Origin: an uncultured Candidatus Micrarchaeota archaeon
GTDB lineage: Archaea > Micrarchaeota > Micrarchaeia > Anstonellales > Bilamarchaeaceae
DNA length: 64,000 bases
Assembly (NCBI GenBank): GCA_963800555.1
Contig: CAWDBH010000008.1
Span: 48,258-112,257 of the forward strand
Direction: 5' to 3'
The position numbers and the translations under genes are program-made. Of the stretch, positions 11,681 to 62,246 are shown in pieces; positions within the stretch are counted from its first letter, which is position 1; every line of letters starts with the position of its first letter. The notes beneath the pieces were generated by a model. That model saw nothing but the letters and a program-made list of their open reading frames with translations, was not told the origin of the DNA and ran no database searches.

Positions 11681-11811
11681 TGCCGAGGGGGGAATTTGAA
11701 TCCCCGACCTCTCGATTTCTCGAGTGCATAATATCATCGGCATGATGCCTCATCACTCATCGGGTTTGCACCTATGAGTCGAGCACTCTCAACCAGCTGA
11801 GCTACCTCGGC
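11681..11811 (-). tRNA. elongator tRNA-Met (CAU) with a 56-nt intron at the canonical 37/38 position (intron about 11717..11772)
   Basis: Exon 1: GCCGAGG-TA-GCTC..GAGT-G-CTCGA-CTCATA. Exon 2: A-TCGAG-AGGTC-GGGGA-TTCAAAT-TCCCC-CCTCGGC-A, with a perfect acceptor stem. The intron carries GUGAUGA and GAUGA motifs. The track ORF 11529..11756 overlaps this tRNA and is spurious. Confidence 0.75.
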
Positions 11812-12565: not shown

Positions 12566-12676
12566 TCATCTCGTTATATGAAGGAACACCATATATTCTT
12601 TGCGCCTCTTGAAGGGCATGCGTGCTCCGGAACGGCACCCGCCCTTTTTATTCTCTTCATCGGATATCTGGACTGG

Positions 12677-24080: not shown

Positions 24081-24185
24081 ACGGGCCTGGTGAGATTTGA
24101 ACTCACGACACACGGATTTCACCTTTTAGGAAAAGATTTCCTTCAGATAAGAGTCCGTCGCTCTACCAAGCTGAGCTACAGGCCC
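24081..24185 (-). tRNA. tRNA-Lys (CUU) with a 31-nt canonical (37/38) intron (about 24117..24147)
   Basis: GGGCCTG-TA-GCTC-AGCTTGGTA-GAGC-G-ACGGA-CTCTTA[intron]A-TCCGT-GTGTC-GTGAG-TTCAAAT-CTCAC-CAGGCCC-G. A TTTTATATTG box lies about 30 nt upstream and a T-rich tail follows. Confidence 0.75.
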
Positions 24186-42035: not shown

Positions 42036-42082
42036 ATAGATTCCGTTAATAAGAATTTGCAATTGAAGTTTTGATTACTCAT

Positions 42083-42155
42083 GGGGAAGTGAGCCAACCT
42101 GGTATGCTGCTAGCTTTGGGAGCTGGTTATCTGAGTTCAAATCTCAGCTTCCCCA
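42083..42155 (+). tRNA. tRNA-Pro (UGG)
   Basis: GGGGAAG/CTTCCCC acceptor, anticodon arm CTAGC-TTTGGGA-GCTGG, T-arm CTGAG-TTCAAAT-CTCAG, followed by ttttattttt. Confidence 0.8.
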
Positions 42156-42283
42156 TTTTATTTTTGCTAATTTTTGCCTCGCAGCAAAATTCGCAATCTG
42201 GACAAATAGGCTCGCGTTGAACGCGTTTTCTCCTCCTCGGAACCCGACGTATCATTTATATAGTTAATTGCGAAAAACACCAC

Positions 42284-44258: not shown

Positions 44259-45452
44259 ATGAACAAGGTGGATATATACGACTTTCAGCGCAGGCTAGAG
44301 CAAGCGATGGATAAGCTCAGGAAAGATAATATAGGCACGGAAAATATTCGCGATATATCCTCATTCTCCAAAATCAAGCTTGCCAAGGGAGTATCGCCCG
44401 GAAGGGCTGCCAAGATAATCCATTGCCTCCGATTGTTGGCAAAACGGCTCAGAAAACCCTTCAGGCAAGCCACAAAAGACGATTTGATTGCCCTAGTCGG
44501 AAATCTCGAAAGAAGCGACTATGCTGAGCATACAAAGTACGACCTAAAGGTCATGCTGAAAATGTTCTACAAATGGCTCAAAGGAAATGATGAATCCGCC
44601 CCTCCGGAAATCGCTTGGCTGAAGAAAAGCAAGAAAAACCTAAACCATAAGCTCCCCGAAGACCTGTTAAGCGAAGACGAAGTCCTTCAGATGGTCGAAG
44701 CCGCGATAAACCCTCGCGATAAAACCCTGATTTTGGTATTATACGAGACTGGCTGCCGGATTGGTGAACTCCTATCCTTACAGATGAAAAACGTCAATTT
44801 TGACCAATATGGCGCGGTTCTGAGGGTAACTGGTAAGACTGGCGACCGGAGGGTTCGGATTATCAGTTCAGCGCCGGTTCTGGCCTCCTGGCTCAATGCC
44901 CACCCTAGGGCTAATGATCCGGACGCCTGGCTATGGTTCCAATACAAGAATAACAAGAAAACCGATAAGTGCCTGAGGCATGGAACGGTTTATGCGACGC
45001 TCAAGAAGATTGCCAAGAGGGCTGGAATCCAAAAGAAGGTATATCCTCACCTTTTCAGGCATTCAAGAGCTACGGCCCTGGCAAACAAGCTGACGGAAGC
45101 CCAGATGAAAGAACATTTCGGTTGGGTCCAGGGTTCTGAGATGGCGGCTACCTATGTTCATCTATCAGGCCGGGATGTGGATAACGCTTTCTTGAAAATA
45201 CATGGTCTGGTTCAAGCTGAGAACGCTCAAGAAGAAAAACTAAAGCTCAGAATTTGCCAGCGGTGCAAGGATCATAACTCTCCAAGCTCGAAGTTTTGCA
45301 CAAAATGCGGTTTGCCTCTGGACGAACAAACGATGGCTATGATTGAGAATAAGCGGGAGAAGAGCGACAATCTCATGAACAAGCTGATGGACGATGAGGA
45401 ATTCAAGAATTTTATGATGAAGAGGATTGCCGAATTGAGGCTAAATCTTTGA
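44259..45452 (+). CDS. tyrosine recombinase / integrase with a C-terminal zinc ribbon
   Basis: Catalytic R..HLFRHSRAT...Y pattern (R, H-x-x-R, Y) and a C-terminal CQRCK...CTKCG. Confidence 0.85.
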   Translation: MNKVDIYDFQRRLEQAMDKLRKDNIGTENIRDISSFSKIKLAKGVSPGRAAKIIHCLRLLAKRLRKPFRQATKDDLIALVGNLERSDYAEHTKYDLKVMLKMFYKWLKGNDESAPPEIAWLKKSKKNLNHKLPEDLLSEDEVLQMVEAAINPRDKTLILVLYETGCRIGELLSLQMKNVNFDQYGAVLRVTGKTGDRRVRIISSAPVLASWLNAHPRANDPDAWLWFQYKNNKKTDKCLRHGTVYATLKKIAKRAGIQKKVYPHLFRHSRATALANKLTEAQMKEHFGWVQGSEMAATYVHLSGRDVDNAFLKIHGLVQAENAQEEKLKLRICQRCKDHNSPSSKFCTKCGLPLDEQTMAMIENKREKSDNLMNKLMDDEEFKNFMMKRIAELRLNL

Positions 45453-45727
45453 GTTCGCTCCACGACGATGGTTTATGAAATATGCTTGTGTCGTTCGGGG
45501 ATATATAAAGGGATGGCGAATTCAATAGCTCTGAGGCGTATCTCTTGCGAGTTCAGCATCAGGAAAGCCTGTTTTTACTGATTTTCGAGGATGGGAATTC
45601 GCCATACTTCAAGCGTTCTGGGCGTCAATTCGCTTGAACCCGCTCAAAAAGTCAGGGTGAATTATTGAATACCCTCTCGAGTGTTTCTCTGATGTTTGTT
45701 CTAGTTATTCTCTTTTTCGCGCTCTCA

Positions 45728-46070
45728 CAACTATCTATATGGTCAGAACGCTTGTTTCAGTGTGTTCTGGGCTTCAGAACGTTTGAAGCAGTGTGAAAGC
45801 AGTGTGCTTGTTTATATACGCAAAATAGGCGTAACACACTGGTTTTTAGGGGTCAGAAAAGCGGTGTGCAGCGCTTCTTTACACAATAACTCTCGCTCTC
45901 TCATCTCAGGGCAGGAAAAATGCTTGATTCAATGTGCTAATCACGTCGATGAGCCCTAAAAAGCATTGTGCTTTTCATTGTGTTTCTTTATAAACCTGGA
46001 AACGCTTCTGCACAATGATTTCAAGGTCAAAAAAGGCATTGTGCTAACCGAAGAGACGAGTCTTCAATAA
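45728..46070. repeat. array of about 8 degenerate iteron-like repeats (core CAGTGTG / GCATTGTGC) in AT-rich DNA
   Basis: tcagaacgcttgtttcagtgtg, cttcagaacgtttgaagcagtgtg, gcagtgtgcttg, gcggtgtgcagcg, caatgtgct, gcattgtgcttttcattgtg, ctgcacaatga, ggcattgtgct. Confidence 0.45.
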
Positions 46071-46124
46071 GGTAATAAATCTGTTCGAAGTTATGATTAC
46101 GGTGCTATTTTGTCAGATGCCCAA

Positions 46125-47806
46125 ATGGAAGCCGCAAGGAAAGAAATCGAAGAACTCCTAGTGAAATTCAAGCGGGATTCCGAAAGCGGGCGAACCAAGA
46201 CATTGAAGGAGGAGAACACAAAGAAGGATTACATAACTCCTCTTTTCCGGGCCCTCGGATGGGATGTGGAAAACAAAAATGCATCCGACGAAGTAACAAA
46301 TGAAGACAAAATATCAAGAGGAAGGGTTGATTATGCATTCCGGCTGCATAGTATCCCAAAGTTCTTTCTTGAAGCAAAAGCCATGGATAAGGGGCTAGAT
46401 GAAGCCAAAGATGCGATTCAGGCGATTAACTACGCGTGGCATAAAGGCGCGACATGGGCCATTCTCACAGATTTCAAAACGCTCATTGTTTACAACGCAG
46501 AAGTGAAAGAGGAGAATCTTTCGAACTGCCGGTTCATACAGTTGACTTGCGATCAATATCTAGAGCAGTTTCATAGATTATGGTGGCTTTCAAAACCTGC
46601 ATTTCAAGAGGGACTGCTGGACAAGGAAGCCCTGAGTTGGGGCAAAAAACTTAGGAAGACAAAAGTCGGAGACCAATTGCTTCAAGAGCTCATGAGCTAC
46701 CGGATGGCGCTCTCCAAGAATATCCTGAAGAACAATTCCAGTAAAAACCTTTCTGAGGAGGAGATAGACGAAGCGGTACAGAGGATAATCGACCGCCTGA
46801 TTTTCATAAGGACAACCGAGGATAGGCTGGTAGAAGAACCGGTTTTACGACCTCTGGCTCGAGAATTCGATGATAAAAAACGAGGGAAACTTACTACTTC
46901 GCTCAATGAGGTTTATCTTAGATTTGATGATACCTACAATAGCCGGCTTTTCAGCTTCAATCCCAACGATAAAACGCAGAGACACCTATGCGAAAGCCTG
47001 GAAATAGACAATGAAGTTCTAATCGATATCATCAATGGCCTCTATCAGAGCAAAGACGGGCTAACACACTACGATTTTTCGGCAATAGATGCGGATGTCC
47101 TTGGGAATATTTACGAGCAATACCTTAGCCATATCCTAAGAAAAACCGAGAAACGGGCCAAACTGGAAAGCAAGGAGGCACATCGCAAAGAGCAGGGGAT
47201 TTACTATACTCCAACATACATAGTCGAATATATCATCAGAAATACTCTTGGCGAAGTCCTGAAGCGGAAGAAATCAGAAGAGGCCGATAAAATCAAAGTC
47301 CTTGACATGGCTTGCGGCTCCGGCTCTTTCCTTTTGAAGGCTTTTGATGTGATAGACGCGCATCACCAGAAGAATGATAAAGAATACGCCCAGACAAAGC
47401 TGGACCTTGAGAACGAGTCTGCCAGGATAACCAAGAAGATAAAGATACTGAAAAACAATATTTATGGGGTTGATCTAGATCCGAAAGCGATTGAAATAGC
47501 CCAGCTTAACCTCTTGCTCAAGGCGGCTGAAACCCGCCATCGCCTTCCAGATTTGAGGGAGAATATAAAATGCGGGAACTCAATAATTTCAGACCCGACA
47601 GTTGCTGGAGAGCGTGCCTTTGACTGGAACAGGGAATTCGAGGCGATTATGAAAGATGGGGGGTTCGATGTCATTATTGGCAATCCCCCTTATGTAGATA
47701 TCAAGCAGCTAGAACCAAGAATTGTTAATTATCTTTTCAATACATATCCGACAGTTGAAAATAGAATGAATCTATACTCTGTTTTTGTAGAGAATGGTCT
47801 AAAATT
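46125..47806 (+). pseudogene. Type IIG restriction-modification fusion enzyme (N-terminal PD-(D/E)xK nuclease plus gamma-class N6-adenine methyltransferase), N-terminal fragment, interrupted by an IS element
   Basis: N-terminal HsdR-N/Mrr-like nuclease region. GIYYTPTYIVEYII (motif X), VLDMACGSGSFL (motif I), NIYGVDLD and GNPPY (motif IV). The reading frame continues on the far side of the IS. Confidence 0.75.
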
Positions 47807-48838
47807 GGCTCTGTAGAAATGCTTAATTGATAAGTATGCCAATGGGTTTCATCGTCGAGGCTTACCAGGGCCTTGACTCCTCCCAGCGGCGAAATCCATG
47901 CAAAAGAGAACGTCAAAGTTAATTAGAGTAGCGGTTAGGGCCCAGCAGGCAGCCAAGTACGTGCTGCCTGAATATGGAAACAAATTCTCAAGAAAAGACT
48001 TCACTCAGCATCAGCTCCTAGCGATAGCTGTCCTGAAACAGAAGACTGACGAGGATTACAGGGATACTGTTGACGGCATTGGCAGCGACTTGATGCAAGC
48101 GATGGGTCTCACGAAGATACCTCATTTCACTACCCTCCAGAAGTTCATCAAGAGGCTGGACTCACAGGTATTGGATACCCTTATCGCAGTGGTCGCAATC
48201 CTCATCATAGGGGATCAATTGATCAGGGGAGCCGTCGTAGGGATAGACTCTTCAGGATATCCTGCTTCGCATGCCAGCAGCTACTTCGTGAGGAGGATAA
48301 AACGCAAGCCTACGCATAAGACGTTCCTCAAAGGTTCATTCGTTGGGGACCTGACAAATCAGGTCATCGTCTGCTGCAGGCTAAGGAATTTCCCGTCTCA
48401 TGATATCATTGATTTCAGGAGGCTGATGAAACGCGCCCTGATACTCTTGAAGAAGATTTCAGAGGTTCATGCTGACAAGGGGTACGATGGCAAGGATGAG
48501 ATCCTTCTCGTGGAGAAGCTTCTGAAGGCCGTGCCGTACATCAAGATCAAGGAAACCGACAGGCACAAATGCAAAAGCCAGATAAGGCGCAGGGTTTTGA
48601 ACAACTGGAATCGGCTCACCTTCGCTTTGAGGGGGCGGCAGCGCAACCTCATAGAAACAATCAACTCCGTTGTAAAGAGGGTCTTCGGAGACGCCCTCTA
48701 TAGCAAGGGCATCTGGATGCGGCGCAAGGAATTGAAGCTGAAGTACTTTGCCTACAACATTTACCGGTCAGTCCAGCTAGAGGAGATTTTTTGTTGCCTC
48801 GTCTTAAGCTGGACTTAAGAGAGGGTTTCTACAGAGCC
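47807..48838 (+). mobile_element. IS element, copy 1: 1032 bp, 13-bp perfect terminal inverted repeats (ggctctgtagaaa / tttctacagagcc), 8-bp target-site duplication ctaaaatt
   Basis: Identical base-for-base to copy 2 at 57818..58849. TSD at 47799-47806 and 48839-48846. Confidence 0.85.
47898..48818 (+). CDS. DDE transposase (IS4/IS5 superfamily)
   Basis: ...GIDSSGY...ADKGYDG...E pattern; 306 aa. Confidence 0.8.
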   Translation: MQKRTSKLIRVAVRAQQAAKYVLPEYGNKFSRKDFTQHQLLAIAVLKQKTDEDYRDTVDGIGSDLMQAMGLTKIPHFTTLQKFIKRLDSQVLDTLIAVVAILIIGDQLIRGAVVGIDSSGYPASHASSYFVRRIKRKPTHKTFLKGSFVGDLTNQVIVCCRLRNFPSHDIIDFRRLMKRALILLKKISEVHADKGYDGKDEILLVEKLLKAVPYIKIKETDRHKCKSQIRRRVLNNWNRLTFALRGRQRNLIETINSVVKRVFGDALYSKGIWMRRKELKLKYFAYNIYRSVQLEEIFCCLVLSWT

Positions 48839-49936
48839 CTAAAATTGCTAAAAAACGGGGGGTACTTCGGTTTCATCATTCCAAATTCTATCCTTTACAA
48901 CGAATCATACAGTAAGATACGAGACAGACTTTTGCAATCAACTTCATTGAAAAAAATTGTGCGGCTACCGGATAATGTATTCAAAGATGCAAAAGTAGAA
49001 ACGATAATTTTAATCTTCCAAAAAGGCAACCCGCATAAAAATATCTGCGAAGTGCTAATATATGATAGACTTGCAAATATCAACTCCATAACTATCGAAA
49101 CTTGCAAACAACATGTTTTATTTAATCAAGATACCTGGAACGAGGGGCAGAAAACGATAAACATCACCCTCAATAAGTCGTTTAGTGAGTTATTGAAGAA
49201 AATCGAAATGACTACTGTTCCTCTCGTTGAACTATGCGACTTTTCTCTTGGTCTTACCCCTTATGATAAATACAAAGGACACACACAAAAACAAATAGAA
49301 GAGCGTGTGTTTCACTCTTCAACGAAAAAGAACGAAACTTTCAAACCGCTCTTATCTGGGGAGAATATAGTGAGGTATGGCATTTTTTGGGATAAGAAAG
49401 AGTACATTAGCTACGGTAGTTGGCTAGGTGCAGCTAGAGAAAAAAGATTTTTCACCGAACCTCGGATTGTAGTTAGGCAGATTATTAGTGGCAAGCCACT
49501 GAGGATCTACGCGGGGTATAGCGAGGATGAATTGTACAATGCACAAATCGGCTTTAATCTATTGCCAAAAGACAAAGCACAGATCCAGATTAAGTATGTG
49601 CTGGCAATTTTAATTTCGAAGTTAATGACTTTTTACCACCGAGAGAGGTATTTAGACCCATCAAAAAATCTTTTCCAGAAAATATTAATAGCAAACGCTA
49701 AGAGATTCCCTATAAAACTCGCACCTTCTAGCGAACAGCAAAAAGTTGTAAATTTAGTCGATAAACTACTCGCTTTGAAGAAACGATTATTTGATCTAGG
49801 CGATAAACAAACCGAAGAATCAGCCAAACTTGAAAAGGAGATTGCCGAACTCGACCGCAAGATTGACGAGCTGGTTTTTGATCTTTACGGTCTAACAGCG
49901 GAAGAACGGAAAATCGTTGAAAAAGCGATGAAGTAG
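48839..49936 (+). pseudogene. Type IIG restriction-modification enzyme, C-terminal fragment (remaining methyltransferase motifs plus target-recognition domain), downstream of IS copy 1
   Basis: Continues ...FVENGLKL|LKNGGYFGFIIPNSILYN...; the track ORF 48791..49936 starts inside the IS right end. Confidence 0.7.
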
Positions 49937-49941
49937 AAGTC

Positions 49942-50274
49942 TTAATGAACTAACAAGATAATGGCAGCAACGACAATTGAGCAGTATGCCCAACTGAGCC
50001 AATAATAAATCTGGGGGAGACTGTTACCAATCGCATATGCAGCGATACCGACCACCCCCATAATTAGTCCGATATTTGAATACCAGACTAAGAGGTCGCT
50101 CGGGTTCGATAACGATATCACAAATAGATTTATCGCCAGCGTATTACAAAATGTCGAGGTTCGCCCCACGAACTGCTTTTCTACAAGATAGCCTACGATA
50201 AACAGGGATAAGGCGGGTAACAATCTTAGAAGCGTGTCTGGCAAAATATTTATCCAAAGTGAAGACATACTCAT
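49942..50274 (-). CDS. hypothetical membrane protein
   Basis: 110 aa, 3-4 TM. Confidence 0.4.
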   Translation of the reverse strand: MSMSSLWINILPDTLLRLLPALSLFIVGYLVEKQFVGRTSTFCNTLAINLFVISLSNPSDLLVWYSNIGLIMGVVGIAAYAIGNSLPQIYYWLSWAYCSIVVAAIILLVH

Positions 50275-50278
50275 CCCT

Positions 50279-50635
50279 TCAAGCTATCGGTAGTCCCTTC
50301 GGTGTCAGTGCATCTGCAAGCAAGTGGCTGAGATAAGCTGCTGCAAGCGAAGCGGCTGCCGCTTTTTGCTCCGCTGAGGTTGTGCTCTGCCCCCACGTCT
50401 CTTTGGCCATATGGGTAACAATCCCGGCTGCGGTCAAGCTGTGCGCGAATGACCGGTGGTTAGGTCCATAAGCTGGCTCGATAATGTCTGGGAGTACCGC
50501 TACTCCAGCCCCCATGACGCCCCATCCCACTGCATTCCCCAAGTCAACCGTTTCACCCTGCGCTCGCTTAGCGGCAACATATGTTCCAAAACCAAACAGA
50601 GCTCCGAGAAGGAGATGTTCATTGCAATTTGACAT
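50279..50635 (-). CDS. DUF457 (YdjM-like) membrane-associated metal-dependent hydrolase
   Basis: ...LPDIIEPAYGPNHRSFAHSLT... Confidence 0.5.
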   Translation of the reverse strand: MSNCNEHLLLGALFGFGTYVAAKRAQGETVDLGNAVGWGVMGAGVAVLPDIIEPAYGPNHRSFAHSLTAAGIVTHMAKETWGQSTTSAEQKAAAASLAAAYLSHLLADALTPKGLPIA

Positions 50636-50640
50636 CCGTC

Positions 50641-50979
50641 TCACCTCTTCTTCCTGCTCCAATTGCCAAGGAACTGCCATCTTTGCTGGCCCTCGCTTCT
50701 ATGGACGGAAACTGCAACTCCGCCCCTTTCCTTTGCCAAGGCCCGGAGATCCCTACGTCCATCGCTATCCAGGCGAGCCCCACCGCTCTTGACTTGGACA
50801 TAATACTTCACACCATCTTTCTTTGCATATATGTCCGCAGGTCCACGGCTTCCAGCGCTCAAACGGATATTCTCGTATCCCTTATCCGCAAGATCACGCG
50901 CCACTTTTCCTTCCGCGATTCTTCCAGAACGATATCGGTTTATCATTCCACCATCCCGTTGCTTATGGCAACTTTGCAA
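50641..50979 (-). CDS. Hjc-like PD-(D/E)xK nuclease (archaeal Holliday-junction-resolvase fold)
   Basis: GRIAEGKVARDLADKGYENIRLSAGSRGPADIYAKKDGVKYYVQVKS matches the Hjc pattern G..E..V...L...G...R...S...DI.A.K.G....V.VKS. Confidence 0.5.
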   Translation of the reverse strand: MQSCHKQRDGGMINRYRSGRIAEGKVARDLADKGYENIRLSAGSRGPADIYAKKDGVKYYVQVKSGGARLDSDGRRDLRALAKERGGVAVSVHRSEGQQRWQFLGNWSRKKR

Positions 50980-51040
50980 TTTACTTTGTTTTAAATGTTA
51001 TGTGGAAAGTTATTTAAAGCTGCTCTTTGGATAACTACTC

Positions 51041-51346
51041 ATGGATATTCGTGAGCTGGTTCGGGACGCCCAGGCTCTCAATTCCAAATTGATATCCGTT
51101 CCACGGCTTCTCATCCTTTTCTCATTAGAAGGTCTTGGACGTGATGGGGCTGCCTATAGGGAATTGAAAGCAGGGTTGGAGATGGATGATGGGTTGCTGT
51201 ATTCAAACGTGGATGCCCTCAAGGAGATGGGGTATGTCAAAGAAAAGGACATTAGATTGGAGAACAAAGAGATGACGTCGTATTATATTACCGAGGAAGG
51301 GAAGGAAGCCCTTAGCAGTGCCAGAGCATGGTTGAAGAAAATCTGA
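51041..51346 (+). CDS. winged-helix transcriptional regulator
   Basis: 101 aa, wHTH-like; translationally coupled (TGATG) to the next gene. Confidence 0.5.
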   Translation: MDIRELVRDAQALNSKLISVPRLLILFSLEGLGRDGAAYRELKAGLEMDDGLLYSNVDALKEMGYVKEKDIRLENKEMTSYYITEEGKEALSSARAWLKKI

Positions 51347-51891
51347 TGGACGGTGGCAACATGGGGGAGCTGAGAAAAGTTATTGCTTGTATACGAGAGT
51401 TGGACAAAAAAATGAAGGTTGACAATTTTCAGGATAAACTAGTGATCCAGAAGACGGTTTGTCTTCTTGAATTGCTTGGTTTCGATATGAAATACGGATT
51501 TTCTATGTATGTCCGGGGACCGTATTCTCCGGCATTAACAGAGGATTTATATCAAAATAAAGAAGCAGTCGAGAACCTCAGGACCGATTATGTGCCTAGT
51601 GGCAAAGAGAAATCTATGATTTCCGTGATAGGCGAAGCCAGCAATCATTTTGAGCCTTCGATGCTGGAAATCATGGCAACATATGCCTTCCTCATAAAAA
51701 GGAGCTCTTATGGAGGGAAAGAAGCCATCACAGAATTGAAAAGAATTAAACCATTCTATTCCGAAACCAAGATTGCGGTGGGTGTTTCAAGGGCGAAGCA
51801 GCTTTTCCCGGCAACTGAAAAAGAGGTTCGGGATATGAAAGCTGAATTCAAGGAGATCGAAGCAGCATCGACATCTGATAACAAATATTGA
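51346..51891 (+). CDS. Panacea-domain (DUF4065, SocA-like) putative antitoxin
   Basis: ...KLVIQKTVCLLELLGFDMKYGFSMYVRGPYSPALTEDLY... matches the DUF4065 core. Confidence 0.6.
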   Translation: MDGGNMGELRKVIACIRELDKKMKVDNFQDKLVIQKTVCLLELLGFDMKYGFSMYVRGPYSPALTEDLYQNKEAVENLRTDYVPSGKEKSMISVIGEASNHFEPSMLEIMATYAFLIKRSSYGGKEAITELKRIKPFYSETKIAVGVSRAKQLFPATEKEVRDMKAEFKEIEAASTSDNKY

Positions 51892-51901
51892 TAGTGGAAA
51901 A

Positions 51902-52240
51902 ATGGCGGGCCATGTTAAAGCAGAGATTTGGCAGGCAGACTTCAGCGGCTCCAGAGGGCATGAACAGAAGAAAGAGCGTCCATGCATTATTTGGAGGGAT
52001 TTGGATCATCTTGGAATGGCCGTGGTTATACCGCTAACTGGTTCTCTTGAAAGGGACAATCTGCCCCATACCCTTCGTATTGACCCATCCACCAAGAACG
52101 GACTGGAAAAGGAAAGCATTATCCTTGTTTTTCAGATAACCGCGATAGACAAGTGCAGATTGTTAAAGAAAGTGGGGGTACTGGACGACGGAGAAATTGA
52201 AACTGTGGCTGCCCTCTTGAAAGACCTTTTACGGATTTAG
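51902..52240 (+). CDS. MazF/PemK-family endoribonuclease toxin
   Basis: ...GHEQKKERPCIIW...GMAVVIPLTGS... motif. Confidence 0.7.
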   Translation: MAGHVKAEIWQADFSGSRGHEQKKERPCIIWRDLDHLGMAVVIPLTGSLERDNLPHTLRIDPSTKNGLEKESIILVFQITAIDKCRLLKKVGVLDDGEIETVAALLKDLLRI

Positions 52241-52654
52241 TCAATCGTCAAACTTCCTTCAGGTCAAACCTTAAATAGCTCATATCCCAGAAATGCCTTC
52301 AGTGGAAGGCTAACTCGGTCTTCGTGCAAGGTGCGTCCTCAGATAAAACTAGAAAGCCCCCGGAGGGGTGCCGGGCCAAAGATTGTTTCCTTACACAACC
52401 ATATGACATCAAGCATGTCTAATCAATATATTGCAGGGAAAATTTTTATGCGTTTTGGAAACTTTCTTCACTATCCATACATGAAGGTGCTGAAGACTAG
52501 CAAATACGTCTTTGTCCTGGAATTTAAGGATTTTATCGGAAGACCCGTTCTATCGTGAGACATTTACCAGCATTTAAAAGAACTGAAGTGGAATGCGAAC
52601 GTAGACGGGAAACTGCCGGTTGGGAGACTGGCACTGCCATAAAGGTTTTGGAGT

Positions 52655-54031
52655 ATGAACCGGGAAGAACTGCTAGACCTAATAAAGACGGGCGAAGGTT
52701 ACTGCCTTGACTTCAAGGAGCGGCTACCCTTGGATTTAGGCAAGGACATATGCGCGTTCATCAATGGTTCTGGAGGCAAGATAATCCTCGGAGTGCGCGA
52801 TGATGGTTCACCGTCAGGCTATATCCTGGACAATACGGATGAGGCAAGGATAAATTCGATGGCGAGAAATCTTGATCCTTCGGTCAGGGTGACGGTTGAG
52901 AGGGTGGGCGAATTCGCAGTTATCCACATACCCGAAGGTGAAAACAAGCCGCATTCATTGTCCGGGCGGTTCTACCTGCGGATCGGTTCCACTTCCCAGC
53001 AGCTTGAGCGTGACGAGATACGGGATTTTTTCCAAAAGGAGCGGCTCGTGCGCTTCGATGAGAAACCGAACATGGAATTCGATTTCGAGCATGATTTTTA
53101 CAAGCTGAAATTCGACGATTACCTCAGAAGAGCGAAATTGACGCCGCTTCAGGATCAAAGGGATACGCTCGTGAACCTCAATCTCCTGGACAGCGGATAT
53201 ATGAGGAACGCAGGGGTGCTCTTCTTCACCCAGAGGATAACCAAATTCTTTATGAGTGCCACTGTGGTTTGTGTGCTTTACCAAGGTACTGACAAGCACC
53301 AGATACTTGACAGAAAAGAGTTCAACGCAGATCTCCTCTCCAATTTCGAGAATGCGTTCGTTTATACTTGCTCCAAGCTCAACACGAATTTCATTATAAA
53401 GGCAGAACGCACCAATCGACTTGAGCTTCCGGAAGAAGCGCTGCGAGAGGCGCTTATCAATGCCATCGTTCACCGCGACTATTTTTCTACCGGACAAGTC
53501 CAGGTCGATATTTACCTTGACAGGGTGGATATTTCAAACCCCGGAGGACTCGTTTCTGGGCTTGAGAAGAAAGACTTAGGAAAAAGAAGTATGCCCCGTA
53601 ATCCCTTGCTGATGGACCTCCTGCTTCGCATCGACAAAGTGGAAAAAGTAGGCTCCGGCATAAGGCGGATACGAAAGGCTATGGAAGAATACGGGCTTAA
53701 GGCGAAATTCGACATAAGTCAAGGTTTCTTTTCGGTTGTTTTCCCAAGAACCCCCCAAGGCGCTTATCAGGGTATCCCCCAAAATGCCCCCGGAAGTACC
53801 CCCCCAGTGACCCCCCTAGTTACCCCCCCAGTTGGACTTACCCCCCTAGAGCAAAAAATATACGATGAGATAAAAAACGATCCGAAAGCATCCAGCAAAA
53901 TACTTTCAACCCGACTTTCAATCAGCAAGGACACGGTCAAAGAGTACCTGGAAAAACTCAAGGCTAAAGGTGTCATCCGCAGGGTCGGCAGGACAAGCAG
54001 TGGGCACTGGGAGATCATTAAAAGAGAGTGA
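52655..54031 (+). CDS. AlbA_2 (Schlafen-like divergent AAA) plus HATPase_c_4 ATP-binding protein with a C-terminal wHTH
   Basis: N-terminal ...CLDFKE...ICAFINGSGGKIILGV... (AlbA_2); ...LREALINAIVHRDY...VDIYLDRVDISNPGGL (HATPase-like); C-terminal HTH. Confidence 0.7.
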   Translation: MNREELLDLIKTGEGYCLDFKERLPLDLGKDICAFINGSGGKIILGVRDDGSPSGYILDNTDEARINSMARNLDPSVRVTVERVGEFAVIHIPEGENKPHSLSGRFYLRIGSTSQQLERDEIRDFFQKERLVRFDEKPNMEFDFEHDFYKLKFDDYLRRAKLTPLQDQRDTLVNLNLLDSGYMRNAGVLFFTQRITKFFMSATVVCVLYQGTDKHQILDRKEFNADLLSNFENAFVYTCSKLNTNFIIKAERTNRLELPEEALREALINAIVHRDYFSTGQVQVDIYLDRVDISNPGGLVSGLEKKDLGKRSMPRNPLLMDLLLRIDKVEKVGSGIRRIRKAMEEYGLKAKFDISQGFFSVVFPRTPQGAYQGIPQNAPGSTPPVTPLVTPPVGLTPLEQKIYDEIKNDPKASSKILSTRLSISKDTVKEYLEKLKAKGVIRRVGRTSSGHWEIIKRE

Positions 54032-54111
54032 TGAAGTTGATGGTAAGTCTGAGATGATGCGGGGGATGTGTTAGCAGGTGAAACAAAGAATCGCCAAAGC
54101 GGGAAGCCTAA

Positions 54112-56028
54112 ATGAGGGGGTTGAATATGATAACATACAAAACAGAGCCATATGAAGAACAGACACATATGAAACACAAAGTATTTCAGGAGTATTTTGA
54201 CAACTGGGTTAAGATACTTGGGAGTGCAAATAACCTAAATTATATAGATGGTTTCTCTGGTGCTGGGGCATATAAAGATACCAAGACCGGCAAGGTATTT
54301 TTTGGTTCGCCAGTTCTTGCAGCGCAAACTATACAAGCGAATAAAAAGGAGAAAACAACAACTCTCGTGTTCATTGATAAAAAACAAGAGAGTCTGAACA
54401 ATGTTAAAAAAATACTAACTGAGAGTGGATTAACGGATTTAACTATTCATTACATAAACGACGATTTTGATAAAACGATTAATTCACTTCTAGCGGAATC
54501 AAAAAATCTAGCCCCAACATTCGTTTTTATAGATCCATTTGGATACAAGATAAACTATCAAACTTTAAAACGAATAATGAGTATAAACAAATCAGAAATT
54601 TTGCTCAATTTTATGTTCAATTCCGTCAGTAGATTCATGAGTGATAAAAAGTTGGATAAGACAATTACAGAACTTTTCGGAACAGATGAATGGAAAGAAA
54701 TAGTCAAACTCGAAGGGATACCTAGAGAGGAAGGAATACGCAAATTATATCGCCAACAACTTAAGAAGATTTCTAAGTTCGTAATGCCATACCGGTTAGA
54801 GTTTCCAGACAAAAAACGCACTTATTACTACATATTTCATCTAACCAACCACGTCAAGGGCTGTAGTATAATGAAGTCGAGTTTTGCCAAATATGCTCAT
54901 GGAAGGACCGAATGGCTGGGAACAGATGCAGATCAGATAAAGTTAACCGAGATTGATGGGATAAAAGATGAATCGCTCGAAAATTATTTCATAACGAAAT
55001 ATAGTGGAAAGAGACCATCATTCGCGAAGATAATTGAAGAGAACATTGATGAAACTGATTATCTTGAAAGCGATATGACCAAAGCAATTCGAAAACTAGA
55101 GGATAGTAACCGAGTATACATAGAACGATTTCCAAAACTTACTGAAAAAAGAAAACAAATGCGCGAAAGCTTAGAAAAAAATGATATTATACATTTCAAT
55201 GTTTTTCCGAGCATAGAAAGAAAGACACTTTTATACAAGACTAAAGTCGAATATGGTAACTATACTATAAATCATGTTTTGGGTTGTGCGCATGGATGTG
55301 CGTATCCCTGTTATGCAATGATGATGGCACAAAGATATGGACGCGTAAAGAATTACGATGACTGGATCCACCCGCGCCTTGTATCCAATAGCCTTGAAAT
55401 TTTGGACAGAGAAATACCAAAATATAAGAACGATATCGACTTTGTTCATCTGTGCTTCACCACCGATCCATTCATGTATGACGCTAAGAACAAGAGAACG
55501 TACAAAGAAATCGAAAAAATGACGTTGAGTATAATAAAAAAATTGAATAACAACGGAATCAAGTGTACAGTGCTTACAAAAGGTCTTTACCCCAAAGAAT
55601 TAACTAAAGATGAATTCTTGAGGGATAACGAGTATGGAATAACAATAGTTTCGCTTGATGCCAAGTTCAGAAAAGAATTTGAGCCATTTTCAGCGCCATT
55701 TGAACAAAGAATTGCCGCGCTTAAACATTTACATGACAACAGATTGAAAACTTGGGTGAGCATTGAACCATATCCAACTCCTAACATAATCAAGCAAGAC
55801 CTAAGCAAGTTGCTTGAAACATTATCGTTCGTCGACAAGATAATTTTCGGAAAAATGAACTATAATGCATCAATAAAAGCATATGAAAACAACGAAGAAT
55901 TCTATAAGAAGTGCAGCCAGACTGTGACGGATTTCTGCACAAAAAAGAGGATAAAGCTCCATATAAAAGAAGGAACACCGACTAACTACTGCAATCAAAC
56001 GGAAGAAATATTTAAGGGTGAAGAATAA
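54112..56028 (+). CDS. fusion protein: N-terminal TcmP-like domain plus C-terminal radical-SAM-like domain with a non-canonical Cx3Cx3C motif
   Basis: N-terminal ...NYIDGFSGAGAYKD...FGSPVLA...FIDPFGY (assigned to the three-Cys-motif partner protein TcmP family from recalled family descriptions, not a search). C-terminal ...HVLGCAHGCAYPCYAM... with downstream SPL/photolyase-like radical-SAM core blocks. Confidence 0.6.
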   Translation: MRGLNMITYKTEPYEEQTHMKHKVFQEYFDNWVKILGSANNLNYIDGFSGAGAYKDTKTGKVFFGSPVLAAQTIQANKKEKTTTLVFIDKKQESLNNVKKILTESGLTDLTIHYINDDFDKTINSLLAESKNLAPTFVFIDPFGYKINYQTLKRIMSINKSEILLNFMFNSVSRFMSDKKLDKTITELFGTDEWKEIVKLEGIPREEGIRKLYRQQLKKISKFVMPYRLEFPDKKRTYYYIFHLTNHVKGCSIMKSSFAKYAHGRTEWLGTDADQIKLTEIDGIKDESLENYFITKYSGKRPSFAKIIEENIDETDYLESDMTKAIRKLEDSNRVYIERFPKLTEKRKQMRESLEKNDIIHFNVFPSIERKTLLYKTKVEYGNYTINHVLGCAHGCAYPCYAMMMAQRYGRVKNYDDWIHPRLVSNSLEILDREIPKYKNDIDFVHLCFTTDPFMYDAKNKRTYKEIEKMTLSIIKKLNNNGIKCTVLTKGLYPKELTKDEFLRDNEYGITIVSLDAKFRKEFEPFSAPFEQRIAALKHLHDNRLKTWVSIEPYPTPNIIKQDLSKLLETLSFVDKIIFGKMNYNASIKAYENNEEFYKKCSQTVTDFCTKKRIKLHIKEGTPTNYCNQTEEIFKGEE

Positions 56029-57817
56029 CAAAATTGAACTGGTAAATGGCCCTGTTAATATTTGGAATATAATAAAGCAATCCACTGGTGAAACAATGAG
56101 AAAACTGGCTCAAGATACAAAACTCTTCAAACCTAAATTCGATCAAGTCAAATATAATCAATTTTTACAGGTAATATCTGGGATATACTCCCTTCTTTCC
56201 TTAAAACTTAAGGATAACGTATCGCTCTCTTCAGTTCTTGAAAATAAGTCCCCTCTGAAAACAAATCTAAAGCCTGATTTTGTCGGAAAGCCGGAATTCT
56301 TTACACGTGAAAACGTTATTGATCTGCTCTTGAATTGCTTAGGATACACTCTGCAACATCGAGCTGGAGAAAGTGATCTTAAGCAAATCTTTGGTAGCAA
56401 ATATCCAGATTATAAGCTGATAACCAGTCCGACTTTACAGATTTTAGTCGAAGCAGAGCCTCTGAACGAGGACATTTACAGTACACCAAACGCTGGGTTG
56501 AATCAGGTCTATGTTTGGCTTGAATCTAAGCGAAGTAAAACGGATTATGGTATCGCAACTAACGGTTTCGAATGGGTACTTGTACAATATCTTGTTGAAG
56601 CTAACAAAAAAATCGAAATTAAAAAAGTTGATTTAACCCCCTTTTTCTTAAAATTATTTGGAAAGCAAGTGTCTGATTCGACTCTAAAAGAAATCTTTCT
56701 TGATTTTATTTCCTACTTTTCCATCGAAACCTCCGAATCTGCGATAAGTGGATTTGTTAAAATTCAAAATGATAAACGAGAAGAAATCAGTAAGAAGTTT
56801 TATGAGAGGTATCTAGAAGCAATCTTTGGTGTGAATAGAGAGGGTAAAAAAATATACCATCATTCTCTTTTTGATGCTATCCAGAATGTACCGAATAATG
56901 AAGAAAGAAAGATAATCGCTCAGCTTACAGTGAACAGATTAATCTTCATCAAATTTATTGAAAGTAAGGGGTGGATAAACAACAATCCTCGTTTTCTTAA
57001 GGATCTCAAGGAGCAATACGCAAAAAGCCCCACTCCGGCCGGCTTTTTCAAAACCTATCTTGAGCCTCTTTTCTTCTTGGCACTGAATAACCCCAACACA
57101 AAGAAACCACATCCATACGAGAATGTTCGCTACCTTAACGGAGGTCTTTTCAGAAAGGATAGAATAGAAGAAGCAAATGCATCCTATGACATTTCTAACG
57201 ATGAATTACTGCGGATTATAGATTTCCTCGAAGACTATGATTTCAAGATTAAAGGAAGTACTACCCACGAAGGTAAAGAAACACTTGATCCTGAAATCCT
57301 GGGTTATATCTTCGAAAGAACGGCAAATCACGAAGCAGGTGCATATTATACACCAGAACCAGTTACTAGATATATTGCAGATCAAACAATTGAATCACTT
57401 GTCATAGAACGAATCAATGCCTATCTTAGGGAAAAGGGGGAAAAAGAAAAATCTGACTTATATTCAATATTTGGAGAAAATGGGCTGGACATAGATCATT
57501 TAAGAAACCTTTATGAAAAACGTCAGATTCTGAGCATAAAAATTCTTGATCCTGCATGTGGTAGTGGGGCATTTTTCATTCCTGTAATACGAAAATTGAT
57601 GGATACTTCATAAGCGTTTTTATAAAGAAATCAACAGAATTGAACCAAATCAGTACCAGCTCCAGAAAAGAATTGTCGAAGATAATATCTATGGTGTAGA
57701 TATAAACGAAGAAGCAATAGAAATTGCTAAACTGCGTTTGTGGCTTGACCTTCTTGATTCTGTTGAGGCTATCGAAGAAGTTGATGCGTTACCCAATATT
57801 GAATATAACATAATGGC
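56018..57817 (+). pseudogene. second Type IIG restriction-modification fusion enzyme, N-terminal fragment; frameshift near 57610 and IS insertion at 57818
   Basis: N-terminal nuclease domain, AYYTPEPVTRYIAD (motif X), ILDPACGSGAFF (motif I). After the stop at 57613 the +1 frame continues NIYGVDINEEAIEIAKLRLWL...LPNIEYNIMA up to the IS. Confidence 0.7.
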
Positions 57818-58849
57818 GGCTCTGTAGAAATGCTTAATTGATAAGTATGCCAATGGGTTTCATCGTCGAGGCTTACCAGGGCCTTGACTCCTCCCAGCGG
57901 CGAAATCCATGCAAAAGAGAACGTCAAAGTTAATTAGAGTAGCGGTTAGGGCCCAGCAGGCAGCCAAGTACGTGCTGCCTGAATATGGAAACAAATTCTC
58001 AAGAAAAGACTTCACTCAGCATCAGCTCCTAGCGATAGCTGTCCTGAAACAGAAGACTGACGAGGATTACAGGGATACTGTTGACGGCATTGGCAGCGAC
58101 TTGATGCAAGCGATGGGTCTCACGAAGATACCTCATTTCACTACCCTCCAGAAGTTCATCAAGAGGCTGGACTCACAGGTATTGGATACCCTTATCGCAG
58201 TGGTCGCAATCCTCATCATAGGGGATCAATTGATCAGGGGAGCCGTCGTAGGGATAGACTCTTCAGGATATCCTGCTTCGCATGCCAGCAGCTACTTCGT
58301 GAGGAGGATAAAACGCAAGCCTACGCATAAGACGTTCCTCAAAGGTTCATTCGTTGGGGACCTGACAAATCAGGTCATCGTCTGCTGCAGGCTAAGGAAT
58401 TTCCCGTCTCATGATATCATTGATTTCAGGAGGCTGATGAAACGCGCCCTGATACTCTTGAAGAAGATTTCAGAGGTTCATGCTGACAAGGGGTACGATG
58501 GCAAGGATGAGATCCTTCTCGTGGAGAAGCTTCTGAAGGCCGTGCCGTACATCAAGATCAAGGAAACCGACAGGCACAAATGCAAAAGCCAGATAAGGCG
58601 CAGGGTTTTGAACAACTGGAATCGGCTCACCTTCGCTTTGAGGGGGCGGCAGCGCAACCTCATAGAAACAATCAACTCCGTTGTAAAGAGGGTCTTCGGA
58701 GACGCCCTCTATAGCAAGGGCATCTGGATGCGGCGCAAGGAATTGAAGCTGAAGTACTTTGCCTACAACATTTACCGGTCAGTCCAGCTAGAGGAGATTT
58801 TTTGTTGCCTCGTCTTAAGCTGGACTTAAGAGAGGGTTTCTACAGAGCC
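57818..58849 (+). mobile_element. IS element, copy 2: identical 1032 bp, same terminal inverted repeats, 8-bp target-site duplication ataatggc
   Basis: TSD at 57810-57817 and 58850-58857. Confidence 0.85.
57909..58829 (+). CDS. DDE transposase (IS4/IS5 superfamily), identical to copy 1
   Basis: Protein identical to the 47898..48818 product. Confidence 0.8.
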   Translation: MQKRTSKLIRVAVRAQQAAKYVLPEYGNKFSRKDFTQHQLLAIAVLKQKTDEDYRDTVDGIGSDLMQAMGLTKIPHFTTLQKFIKRLDSQVLDTLIAVVAILIIGDQLIRGAVVGIDSSGYPASHASSYFVRRIKRKPTHKTFLKGSFVGDLTNQVIVCCRLRNFPSHDIIDFRRLMKRALILLKKISEVHADKGYDGKDEILLVEKLLKAVPYIKIKETDRHKCKSQIRRRVLNNWNRLTFALRGRQRNLIETINSVVKRVFGDALYSKGIWMRRKELKLKYFAYNIYRSVQLEEIFCCLVLSWT

Positions 58850-60442
58850 ATAATGGCTGGAAATAGCCTTATCGGTACTGACGTGATTCCAGAAATGGCG
58901 CGGGCAGATTTCTATACCTATTATCATCCTACCCGATTTGAACAAATTATTCAGGTATATCCTGACTTGAAAATCGAAACAGACGCACTTATTGGCAAGT
59001 CTACTCAATTCAATATGACCTTTAATGACCTCTTCTTACTTAGGAATAAATTAATCACCAAATACCGCAGCGAGACTCATCCTATATATGCCACAAGATT
59101 AAGAGATATTATCGAGCAAATCTCCGAAAAATTCCGTTTTGAACTCTCAAGGGTATATTTCCATAATGCTCTGAGAATAGAAAAAACTGAAGATTTAAAT
59201 TCAGCAATAATCAAGTTTAAACCCTTCAACTGGATTATGGAATTCTCAGATGTTTTCGAAAAAGGCGGATTTGATGCAGTAATTGGAAATCCCCCGTATG
59301 ATGTTATTTATTCAGGTGAGAATCCTTTAGATGTTAAAACCTTCAAAACGATTTATACAACGGCTGAGTATAATCCGAATTTATTCTGTTTATTCGTAGA
59401 CCGTTCATTATCATTATTAAATCAAAAAGGACTTTTAGGATTTATTATCCCAGATACTATATTAACAAATAAATATTTTGGTAACCTTAGAAGAAAGATT
59501 TTATCAATTTCGAGTATTCTCCAAATTTTAGACTTAAGTAGTGGCGTTTTTCCAGAAGCTATAGTGGATACAATAATTTTTATTCTGAAAAAAGAAGTTA
59601 TACAAGATAATGAAATATTTATAGGTTATAATATAACAAGTAGTGAAGCTATCGCATCAAGAAACTTCAAAAGTAAAAAAATGTTTCAGAAAGAATTTAT
59701 TAATTCCAATAACAACGAGTTTAATATTTATTTTGATAGCGGACTCGAACCTTTAAAAAATCAGATATGGCTGAATTCGGTAAAAATTGAAGAAATTGCA
59801 AATATAAAACGAGGCTTAGTTACCAAAGATAATTCTAAATTTGTGTACACTGACAAAACAGTCGATAAATGCTCTGATAGCTCAAAATTAAAACGTGTTT
59901 TAATTGGTGGAGATGCAAGTCGATACCTATTACATTATAGCGGTAATTATGTTCTTTTTGATGCTTCTGCAAAAGGCGGTGGGTGCTGGGATCGAGAGAT
60001 TTACGAAAATAAGGAAAAGATACTAATCGCATTAATTACAGGAGGAATGAATTATAGAATTAATGCCACTTATGATTCAACCAAATTTTATGCATTACAA
60101 AATTATAACGTGCTTATAGTAACTGATTCTAAATTTTCAACAAAATACGTTTTAGGAATCATAAATTCAAAACTAATATCAAACTATTATGAATTATTTT
60201 TCAATGATAAAAATATAAAAAGAGTGCAACTATTGAGTTTACCCATAAAAGTTGCAACTGACGCAGAGCAACAAAAAATTGCTAATTTAGTCGATAGGCT
60301 CCTTTCGTTAATGTCTGATTGCAATGTAGAAAAGCATAAAACAGAAATTAAAAAAGCGAATGAAGAAATCGATGAGTGTGTTTACAAATTATACGGCATA
60401 ACTGAGACTGAAAGGAAATTAATCGAAAATAATCTGGCGTAG
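58850..60442 (+). pseudogene. second Type IIG restriction-modification enzyme, C-terminal fragment (motif IV GNPPY plus target-recognition domain)
   Basis: ...IMAGNSLIG...FDAVIGNPPYDVIYS...; the track ORF 58802..60442 starts inside the IS. Confidence 0.7.
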
Positions 60443-61818: not shown

Positions 61819-62246
61819 GGTATTTGAGGCGTTCCGCCCCCTTCGTACATAATGCGTTAAAAACTCTATCAATCCATATTGATATAGAAACGGTTATGCT
61901 CATCTTGGGAGAGTGCCGGAGTAGTCTAACGGGCTGGTTTTGCAAACCAGTGGCTTAGTGCCTTCGTGGGTGCAAATCCCACTTCTTATTGCATTTAGCG
62001 TCAGCCAGCAAGGAAGCGAAGCGATGCCGCGACCAGCGCACCGACCACGCTCACGGTGAGCGCACTGCGACACAATTTCTTTATCCTTAATGCGGGATCG
62101 GATTAGCGGCCGGCCCCGCAGGCGGGGCACGTACGGAAGAGCGCTGCCGGGCGCCCTGGGAAAAGATTGATTCTGAGAGAGCCGAGGATACGATTCCACC
62201 GGGTCATTCACCACTGAGGCTTCCCTCTTAGCTATGTAAGTTCGTA

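Follow-up and report, generated by a model that had tools for sequence, protein, structure and literature searches.

Two identical copies of an insertion sequence (IS) interrupt two different Type IIG restriction-modification (RM) genes in the window, the 64,000-nucleotide stretch of DNA from an uncultured Candidatus Micrarchaeota archaeon that was analyzed here. IS copy 1 (47807..48838) lies within RM gene A and IS copy 2 (57818..58849) lies in the same orientation within RM gene B; both are on the + strand and measure 1032 bp. The double insertion is probably explained by AT-rich targeting, by the ability of accessory genes to tolerate insertions and, probably, by local hopping, with both insertions recent and on a horizontally acquired island.

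Comparison of the two copies revealed a match at all 1032 of 1032 bp, which broke exactly at both ends. The IS end sequence begins GGCTCTGTAGAAATGC, and the termini are perfect 13-bp terminal inverted repeats (TIRs), GGCTCTGTAGAAA / TTTCTACAGAGCC, located at 47807-47819 and 48826-48838 in copy 1 and at 57818-57830 and 58837-58849 in copy 2. A separate, perfect 8-bp direct repeat borders each copy as a target-site duplication (TSD), with the sequence ctaaaatt for copy 1 (left 47799..47806, right 48839-48846) and ataatggc for copy 2 (left 57810..57817, right 58850-58857). These features, namely base-for-base identity, TIRs and TSDs, had been described in an earlier sequence-only reading of this DNA, and direct comparison confirmed all of them. 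Perfect 8-bp TSDs were found on five complete copies of the IS, the two in the window and the related copies L005, L008, and L019. Insertion of a composite transposon was rejected as the origin of the arrangement, as each copy has a separate TSD and the outer flanks do not match.

The transposase ORFs of the two copies (47898..48818 and 57909..58829, both on the + strand) are identical and encode a DDE transposase of 306 aa. The protein matched Pfam DDE_Tnp_1 (PF01609) with an E-value of 1.5e-7 (31.8 bits against a 23-bit cutoff), and the best NCBIfam model was NF033579 (IS5_2), matched over positions 20-288 of 289 with 125.4 bits, which is under its cutoff of 140 bits. D117, D193, E253, R249, and K260 were invariant in a 13-sequence alignment that included distant IS5-family members, and identity to the nearest named proteins ("IS5 family transposase") was only 30-36%. 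The element appears to be an uncatalogued IS5-family member with an intact DDE triad. It shares with bacterial IS5-family elements (IS903, IS5, and ISAba13) and with archaeal ISH-type ones (ISHla2 and ISHxa2) a length of about 1 kb, one DDE ORF of about 300 aa with DDE_Tnp_1, the conserved D, D, E and R(3)E(6)K signature, short TIRs starting with GGC, and a target duplication of fixed length. The TSD of 8 bp differs from the 9 bp of IS903 and the 4 bp of IS5, and 8 bp is typical of the archaeal ISH1 subgroup. Together, the 8-bp TSD and GGC ends may point to the ISH1 or IS903 subgroup.

Logan contigs from run ERR11571142, an independent assembly, hold all four IS-host junctions at 100% identity, those of copy 1 in L033 and L034 and those of copy 2 in L032 and L035. 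The IS is also present in that assembly as a separate contig of exactly 1032 bp (L002), and no empty-site branch was found in it at either insertion. The sequence-only reading had allowed that the arrangement might be an assembly artefact, and the reproduced junctions remove this concern. That an assembler misplaced or duplicated the repeat is extremely improbable: the window does show small indel discrepancies, as is typical for long-read assemblies, but each copy has its own perfect TSD and long ORFs return on excision. In the window, gene B is put out of frame by an extra A at 57605..57605 (GGATaCTT, + strand, 1 nt), which lies 213 bp ahead of IS copy 2. This A is missing from L032, which is otherwise 100% identical over 5508 bp, and from homologues, and it probably reflects an error of sequencing or assembly, or else a minor variant. 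Another A, at about 49505, may likewise be an error or a variant.

Removal of the IS and one TSD copy from gene A gave an uninterrupted ORF of 923 codons. Its 5' fragment (46125..47806, + strand) encodes a PD-(D/E)xK nuclease, a helical spacer, and methyltransferase motifs I and IV, and its 3' fragment (48847..49936, + strand) encodes the remainder of the methyltransferase domain and a TaqI_C target-recognition domain (TRD). The nuclease motif is canonical (D69...E83-A-K85), motif I lies at about 394-400 (CGSG at 397), and NPPY lies at 520, with IS copy 1 sitting 37 codons past it. Pfam matches were HSDR_N, N6_Mtase, Eco57I (E 4e-44), and TaqI_C (E 3e-15), and the best PADLOC model was REase_MTase_IIG PDLC03604 (E 5.6e-117, residues 5-707).

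Gene B gave a 1101-codon ORF after the same excision only if the extra A was also removed. Its start and frame were set by alignment with P0131-P0133, by which the start of the 56018 ORF was replaced by 56096. The 5' fragment (56096..57817, + strand) encodes an N-terminal nuclease-like domain, a helical region, and methyltransferase motif I (CGSG at 488), and the 3' fragment (58858..60442, + strand) encodes NPPY (718), the remainder of the methyltransferase domain, and a TaqI_C TRD; IS copy 2 sits between motif I and NPPY. Pfam matches were Eco57I (E 1e-35) and TaqI_C (E 3.7e-16), and several PADLOC REase_MTase_IIG models matched with E-values down to 1.5e-55, covering only residues from about 253 on. 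In the nuclease-like motif, D105...E119-A-E121, D105 and E119 were invariant and A120 nearly so among 22 homologues, and position 121, which has E in place of the usual K, was not among the conserved columns. The AF2 model (pLDDT 87.6) placed the nuclease-motif residues on a beta-hairpin, and the top PDB matches for the nuclease fold, none of them significant, were the HsdR fragment 3h1t (Foldseek E 0.059), DrdV, and EcoR124I HsdR. The closest uninterrupted homologue (L036) has a single copy of the target sequence ataatggc and was found in assembly ERZ25039480, which also has four IS copies (L005, L006, and L008 there). Gene B and its closest relative share about 90% identity over the N-terminal 750 aa and diverge beyond, in the TRD, as described for Type IIG alleles (PMC2853133). 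This divergence points to specificity turnover in the family.

Motif mapping of both genes bore out the earlier statement that the insertions lie at different positions in the methyltransferase region of Type IIG-type nuclease-methyltransferase fusions. Like Eco57I, BpuSI, MmeI, and DrdV, the restored proteins are single chains in which a helical spacer joins an N-terminal domain of PD-(D/E)xK type, putative in gene B, to a gamma-class N6-adenine methyltransferase with motif I and NPPY; a TaqI_C recognition domain follows at the C-terminus. They differ from the solved Type IIG enzymes in that their nuclease domains have no sequence-level match; their closest solved relatives are methyltransferase-only (CamA and M.TaqI) or BREX PglX. 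Gene B also departs from Type IIG enzymes in having E-A-E for E-x-K, and its nuclease fold is tentative. Identity between genes A and B was about 27-31% and confined to the methyltransferase-TRD part, so the term "paralogous", applied to them in the sequence-only reading, holds in the family sense but not for recent duplicates; the two appear to be distant family members. Full-length homologues of 900-1200 aa number in the thousands. Searches with the restored proteins found no uninterrupted allele closer than 73% identity (gene A) or 64-69% (gene B), and empty-site alleles of this strain are therefore absent from the collections searched. To judge from their intact motifs, the enzymes were presumably active before insertion. 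Unlike Type IIG enzymes, the interrupted genes are not expected to have activity now.

Both RM genes lie in a low-GC accessory/defence island (44259..60442), recognized from the GC profile and from Pfam, NCBIfam, and PADLOC matches. It also encodes a tyrosine recombinase (44259-45452), a YdjM-like protein (50279-50680, - strand), a wHTH protein (51041-51346), MazF (51902-52240), an AlbA_2/HATPase_c_4/wHTH protein (52655-54031), and a TcmP-radical SAM fusion (54112-56028). The GC content of island parts was 31-49%, compared to 53.5% for positions 1-42000, with 38-44% in gene A and 31-36% in gene B. The window core encodes PolD, AlaRS, GlyRS, HisRS, CysRS, and Nop56. A search for island att sites revealed no direct repeat between the tRNA-Pro/integrase side and the right border. 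Linkage of RM genes to integrases and transposases is well documented (PMC2853133). The case resembles IS-mediated pseudogenization in genomic islands, where a mobile element disables horizontally acquired genes beside an integrase and a tRNA gene; compared with such pseudogenization in general, it involves identical copies in two different RM genes within 10 kb, in an uncultured archaeal lineage. A 9-kb block of defence-type genes (MazF, AlbA_2-ATPase, and TcmP-radical SAM) is now bracketed by the two direct IS copies.

We further surveyed 27 other insertion sites of the IS clade (29 including the two in the window). Mean GC content at the 27 sites was 18% in the 8-nt flank at the junction, against 46% nearby, and rose to 32% in 50 nt and 44% in up to 2 kb. 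A permutation against the same flanks gave z = -8, and the observed value was reached in 0 of 20000 shuffles. With 25% and 37.5% GC, the two TSDs of the window belong to the less AT-rich targets surveyed, and no positional target motif beyond A/T richness emerged from the 29 sites. Most of the other sites fall within or close to AT-rich intergenic DNA, or inside a gene for TnpB, a glycosyltransferase, or VapC, and tblastn with both restored RM proteins against 31 related loci (L001-L031) revealed no RM homologue beside other IS copies. The target preference that had been suggested for this IS is thus upheld for short AT-rich sequence but not for RM genes, of which the available flanks hold no homologue. 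In an AT-weighted model, the two RM genes take 27% of the window's insertion weight, compared to 9.8% by length, and the island takes 48%. ISAba13, IS903, and IS5 likewise favor AT-rich, horizontally acquired DNA, and also sites near the donor copy (PMC11335895). The host of this IS, unlike the bacterial hosts of IS5-family elements, is a DPANN-type archaeon without H-NS, so that capture by H-NS, as in bacteria, cannot be presumed to operate. Only five contigs have the exact transposase on record, and three of these (L001-L003) are about 1 kb long, with little beyond the IS. A scan of species-representative genomes with a 22-nt IS end, in a set from which the source genome is absent, revealed a single diverged partial copy in a Micrarchaeota MAG (L004).

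We propose that this archaeal lineage harbors an active single-ORF IS5-family element, two simple insertions of which occurred independently, each producing its own 8-bp TSD and each striking a different Type IIG gene on the low-GC, horizontally acquired defence island. Each insertion cuts the methyltransferase domain in two, parting the N-terminal nuclease from the C-terminal TRD, and from this domain order restriction and modification would therefore have been lost together, leaving no toxic orphan nuclease. The RM genes would have been struck because they were the most AT-rich, dispensable DNA of the neighborhood. The survey demonstrates the preference of the IS clade for short AT-rich targets, and no other long stretches close to the 53% GC core are as AT-rich as the two RM genes. 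Elsewhere the window appears crowded with essential genes, and insertions there would presumably be lost. By analogy with IS5-family precedent, the later copy probably derives from the earlier one through a short-range hop over the 10 kb between them. Genome-wide, AT preference alone does not make it likely that two of two known copies lie in RM genes; the argument needs the tolerance filter that we infer, local hopping, or both. We take the insertions to be recent from the identity of the copies and from the restored genes, in which no other lesion was confirmed. The "very recent transposition" of the sequence-only reading is accordingly plausible, with zero differences between the copies and restored ORFs otherwise intact, but stops short of proof, as gene conversion could keep the copies identical.

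This last point belongs to the reading that the insertions are older than they look, either because gene conversion between the two direct repeats, 10 kb from each other, kept them identical or because one or both insertions arrived with the island. Direct repeats 1 kb in length and separated by 9 kb lend themselves well to gene conversion, and related IS copies in another assembly are only 1-9 nt apart from one another. Nevertheless, we regard greater age as improbable: the restored ORFs show no confirmed secondary lesions, the only frameshift in the window being the one missing from the independent assembly; the GC content of the IS (49%) fits the host core and not the island; and similar genomes have relatives of the IS at numerous unrelated sites. 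It is very improbable that the transposase or a host factor targets RM or methyltransferase genes as such, for example via a motif in DNA coding for gamma-class methyltransferases. Both insertions fall within the methyltransferase region and agree in orientation and codon phase (3n+2, at nt 1682 and 1721), but a shared phase is a 1-in-3 coincidence and a shared orientation a 1-in-2 one. The two targets and their flanks share no motif beyond A/T richness, the positions are non-homologous (past NPPY in gene A and ahead of it in gene B), and an RM homologue was found in the flank at 0 of the 27 other clade sites.

Positive selection for loss of both RM systems, raised in the sequence-only reading as inactivation of autotoxic or incompatible systems, is unlikely, though several observations agree with it; the IS would then be merely the most frequent mutagen, and the double knockout would have been favored and fixed. 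It may have been driven by self-restriction after a change of specificity, by incompatibility between the enzymes, or by the lifting of a barrier to the uptake of DNA. The TRD of gene B, strongly unlike that of its closest relative, also agrees with selection. Both Type IIG genes of the island are struck while the neighboring MazF, AlbA_2-ATPase, and TcmP-radical SAM genes are still open, and the lack of an empty-site branch in the independent assembly is consistent with near fixation. Both known full copies of the exact IS are in RM genes, a count that rests on the 64-kb window and on repeat-collapsed short contigs. However, there is no direct sign of selection, and drift or hitch-hiking would account equally well for fixation in a single sampled population. 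An island-restricted null model of AT targeting, derived from the AT-weighted model, gives a chance of about 30% that both copies fall in RM genes, and related copies elsewhere have no RM-gene association. The uninterrupted gene B homologue L036 also occurs alongside four IS copies in the same assembly, though they may belong to different genomes.

A broader scenario, which we consider rather improbable, is transposon capture of AT-rich acquired DNA at the level of archaeal chromatin or the transposase (cf. bacterial H-NS capture), and/or a double RM knockout that was positively selected, for example by easing DNA exchange in an episymbiotic DPANN archaeon; the IS-bracketed 9-kb block could then move as a composite transposon. 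If such capture operates, IS insertions would be channelled into imported defence genes. On the preferred reading of AT-rich targeting with tolerance and local hopping, the event is real but ordinary in kind and reveals no new mechanism: a resident AT-biased IS disables low-GC imported RM genes and spares the dense essential core. The finding documents the decay of defence genes in a little-studied archaeal lineage and offers a small natural case of an IS5-family element that targets acquired AT-rich DNA where H-NS is lacking. In addition, the two restorable Type IIG ORFs, whose recognition domains differ, are open to synthesis and characterization. The 3' fragments of genes A and B, which lack essential methyltransferase motifs, are both in frame with a TTG in the IS right end (48791 and 58802), where the 1-in-3 coincidence of phase recurs.

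The IS copies at 47807-48838 (copy 1) and 57818-58849 (copy 2) were identical at all 1032 of 1032 bp, and the match stopped precisely at both boundaries. Both had perfect 13-bp terminal inverted repeats (GGCTCTGTAGAAA) and separate, perfect 8-bp direct repeats, ctaaaatt for copy 1 and ataatggc for copy 2. No third copy was present within the 64-kb window. Each copy contained a single 306-codon ORF matching Pfam DDE_Tnp_1; its best NCBIfam model was IS5_2, with near end-to-end alignment and a score of 125 bits, below the 140-bit cutoff. Alignment of the transposase with close and distant relatives revealed invariant D117, D193, and E253 and an invariant R249-(3)-E253-(6)-K260 signature. Close relatives (67-92% identity) came only from metagenomes, whereas the nearest named proteins, which come from methanogens, haloarchaea, and Mesotoga and are annotated as IS5 family transposase, were 30-36% identical to the window protein. 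Perfect 8-bp duplications also flanked related complete copies on the retrieved contigs L005, L008, and L019. Because of the DDE_Tnp_1 and IS5_2 matches, the catalytic signature, the relatives, and the 8-bp duplications, we assign the element, judging from sequence, as a putative uncatalogued member new to the IS5 family.

Only one species-representative genome, a Micrarchaeota MAG, contained the IS end. Several related copies (L006 3910-4941, L009, L010, L020, and L022) lacked a target duplication, suggesting recombination between copies or adjacent deletions. The L006 copy adjoined a HepT/MNT toxin-antitoxin pair and an IS200/IS605 Y1 transposase, and the L008 copy interrupted a TnpB gene. 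At L012, L013, L015, L024, and L028, the 20-nt IS left end was present with no matching right end 900-1300 nt away, and in L015 the IS alignment was limited to 159 nt; these loci may represent either remnants of truncated copies or short, non-autonomous derivatives.

To describe the interrupted genes, the IS copies were excised in silico. Removal of copy 1 and one duplicate from gene A (46125-47806 and 48847-49936) restored a 923-aa ORF in which nuclease motifs of the HSDR_N type (D69...E83-A-K85) are followed by a gamma-class N6-adenine methyltransferase (with motif I around residue 397 and NPPY at 520) and then by a TaqI_C recognition domain. Its best PADLOC model was REase_MTase_IIG (E 5.6e-117, residues 5-707), and it had many named homologues from Micrarchaeota and other DPANN archaea. 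Removal of copy 2 from gene B (56096-57817 and 58858-60442) gave a 1101-aa ORF from 56096 with the same domain order, its start and frame being set by alignment to the intact protein homologues P0131-P0133. In its N-terminal domain D105 and E119 were invariant, and residue 121 was E instead of the usual K. The corresponding AF2 model was confident (pLDDT 87.6), and its top PDB neighbours were an HsdR nuclease fragment, DrdV, and EcoR124I HsdR, with non-significant scores. The two proteins, which we regard as putative new Type IIG members, shared 27-31% identity, confined to the methyltransferase-TRD part. The insertion point was 37 codons past NPPY in gene A and between motif I and NPPY in gene B. 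Both insertions split the methyltransferase fold and severed the nuclease from the recognition domain; we therefore infer that restriction and modification were lost together, leaving no toxic remnant.

The insertions were further examined in Logan contigs, an independent assembly of run ERR11571142. Contigs L032-L035 matched all four IS-host junctions at 100% identity, each covering 24-29 nt of the element; a further contig, L002, consisted of the IS alone and was exactly 1032 bp long. None of the junction contigs ended at the target site, as an abundant empty-site allele would cause. Among uninterrupted relatives, the one nearest to gene B lies in L036 (85% identical at the nucleotide level over 2.2 kb); there the target sequence occurs once, at the corresponding position. 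The assembly artefact that the sequence-only reading had named as its possible undoing is excluded, and its description of two identical copies, each with terminal repeats and its own duplication, in two RM genes is confirmed. The L036 gene (10001-13549), with 36% GC in 54% GC surroundings, was about 90% identical to gene B over the first ~750 residues and diverged sharply in the C-terminal recognition domain, likely a specificity swap between near-alleles.

Window and Logan contigs were identical save for single-base indels. An extra A at 57605 (GGATaCTT) introduces an additional frameshift into gene B in the window, and was missing from L032, otherwise identical over 5508 bp, and from all homologues. 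Conversely, an A at ~49505 (GAGGaTCTAC) in the window was absent from L034, and two more differences lay in C-runs (62431 and 63969). These indels resemble errors of sequencing or assembly, or else rare variants. In either gene the IS is the sole confirmed lesion. The indels at 57605 and ~49505 both affected the A of a GGATCT context, that is, two of the three such sites in the compared region, one being intact in the Logan contig only; the window version has 34 GATC sites. They could be base-calling errors linked to GGATC-type methylation or real pseudogene variants.

To understand the setting of both genes, base composition and gene content were surveyed. Positions 1-42000 had 53.5% GC and encoded essential functions (PolD, archaeal-type AlaRS, GlyRS, HisRS, CysRS, and Nop56 of the aNOP56 type). 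The PolD large subunit (12578-17422) contained an intein (NCBIfam intein N-terminal domain, residues 903-998), and the tRNAs included intron-containing ones: Rfam detected those at 11681-11811 (131 nt) and 24082-24185 (104 nt), which ARAGORN missed, a pattern that fits archaeal introns. These tRNAs, the intein-bearing PolD, the AlaRS, and aNOP56 mark the window as archaeal. GC fell over ~44-61 kb, to 38-44% in gene A, 35% in the TcmP-radical SAM gene, and 31-36% in gene B. This stretch, which also encodes a tyrosine recombinase, a MazF toxin, and an AlbA_2/HATPase_c_4/wHTH protein, is a horizontally acquired defence island adjoining tRNA-Pro. The recombinase (44259-45452), which is XerA-like and extended at its C-terminus by a zinc ribbon, sits at the left edge, 2 kb from tRNA-Pro (42082-42156); a search for att repeats of the island found none. 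At its right border, a tRNA-like sequence (61907-61990) was called as tRNA-Ala(TGC), but its variable arm is long and it scored low, at 37 bits; an ordinary tRNA-Ala(TGC) occupies 9504-9576. The border sequence could be a tRNA that has degenerated or come with the island, or a former site of integration.

The AlbA_2 (Schlafen-like)/HATPase_c_4/wHTH protein (~460 aa, 52655-54031) had counterparts in L036 (8596-9978), L037 (1189-2571), L038 (1182-2564), and L039 (4332-5708). In other genomes it directly adjoins intact RM homologues, preceding those of the gene B type and following those of the gene A type, and looks like a conserved partner of such Type IIG genes. In the window, a 638-aa fusion of TcmP ('three-Cys-motif partner', TIGR04474, E 9e-56) and radical SAM (54112-56028) intervenes between it and gene B. 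Among PADLOC candidate systems, the fusion gene matched PDC-M30A and PDC-M41A/B; at its end, the gene overlaps the ORF that lies upstream of gene B.

As explanations for the double hit, selection for RM loss or a target preference had been proposed. We examined 27 other insertion sites of the IS clade (ENA and JGI metagenome contigs and the Micrarchaeota MAG with the IS end). Mean GC rose with distance from the IS left end, from 18% over 8 nt to 32% over 50 nt, 42% over 300 nt, and 44% over up to 2 kb; compared with random 8-mers of the same flanks, the 8-nt value gave z = -8, with 0/20000 permutations as extreme. No positional motif was apparent at these sites. Most were located in AT-rich DNA shortly upstream of a gene, and a few disrupted TnpB, glycosyltransferase, VapC, or unknown genes. 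None of the 27 loci encoded a homologue of gene A or gene B. The preference thus holds for AT-rich DNA and not for RM genes. When this bias was applied to the pre-insertion window, the expected share of insertions increased from 9.8% by length to 27% for the two RM genes and from 26% to 48% for the whole island. The chance of both window insertions falling in RM genes rose from ~1% to ~7%, and to ~30% in the same model if insertions are tolerated only in the island. Bacterial IS5-family elements favour AT-rich acquired DNA and sites close to the donor copy (PMC11335895). AT-rich targeting, insertion tolerance, and presumed local hopping probably account together for the double RM insertion, which is unsurprising given the AT bias, the low GC of the island, and this precedent taken together. 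At the whole-genome scale the AT argument depends on presumed tolerance and local hopping, and selection for RM loss therefore stays a live alternative, albeit an improbable one. The double insertion is an ordinary event. Earlier work documents insertion sequences landing in accessory and RM genes, the presence of RM genes on islands linked to integrases, and turnover of the TRD among Type IIG genes (PMC2853133).

The GC content of the IS (49%) resembled that of the host core and not of the island. Together with the absence of differences between copies and of confirmed secondary lesions, this fits recent insertions. Gene conversion acting on the two direct repeats is another process that could have kept the copies identical. 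The direct copies (47807-58849) enclose 8979 bp comprising the gene A 3' part, YdjM-like, wHTH, MazF, AlbA_2-ATPase, and TcmP-radical SAM genes, and the gene B 5' part. This block is a potential composite transposon, and the two copies are a substrate for a 10-kb deletion via recombination.
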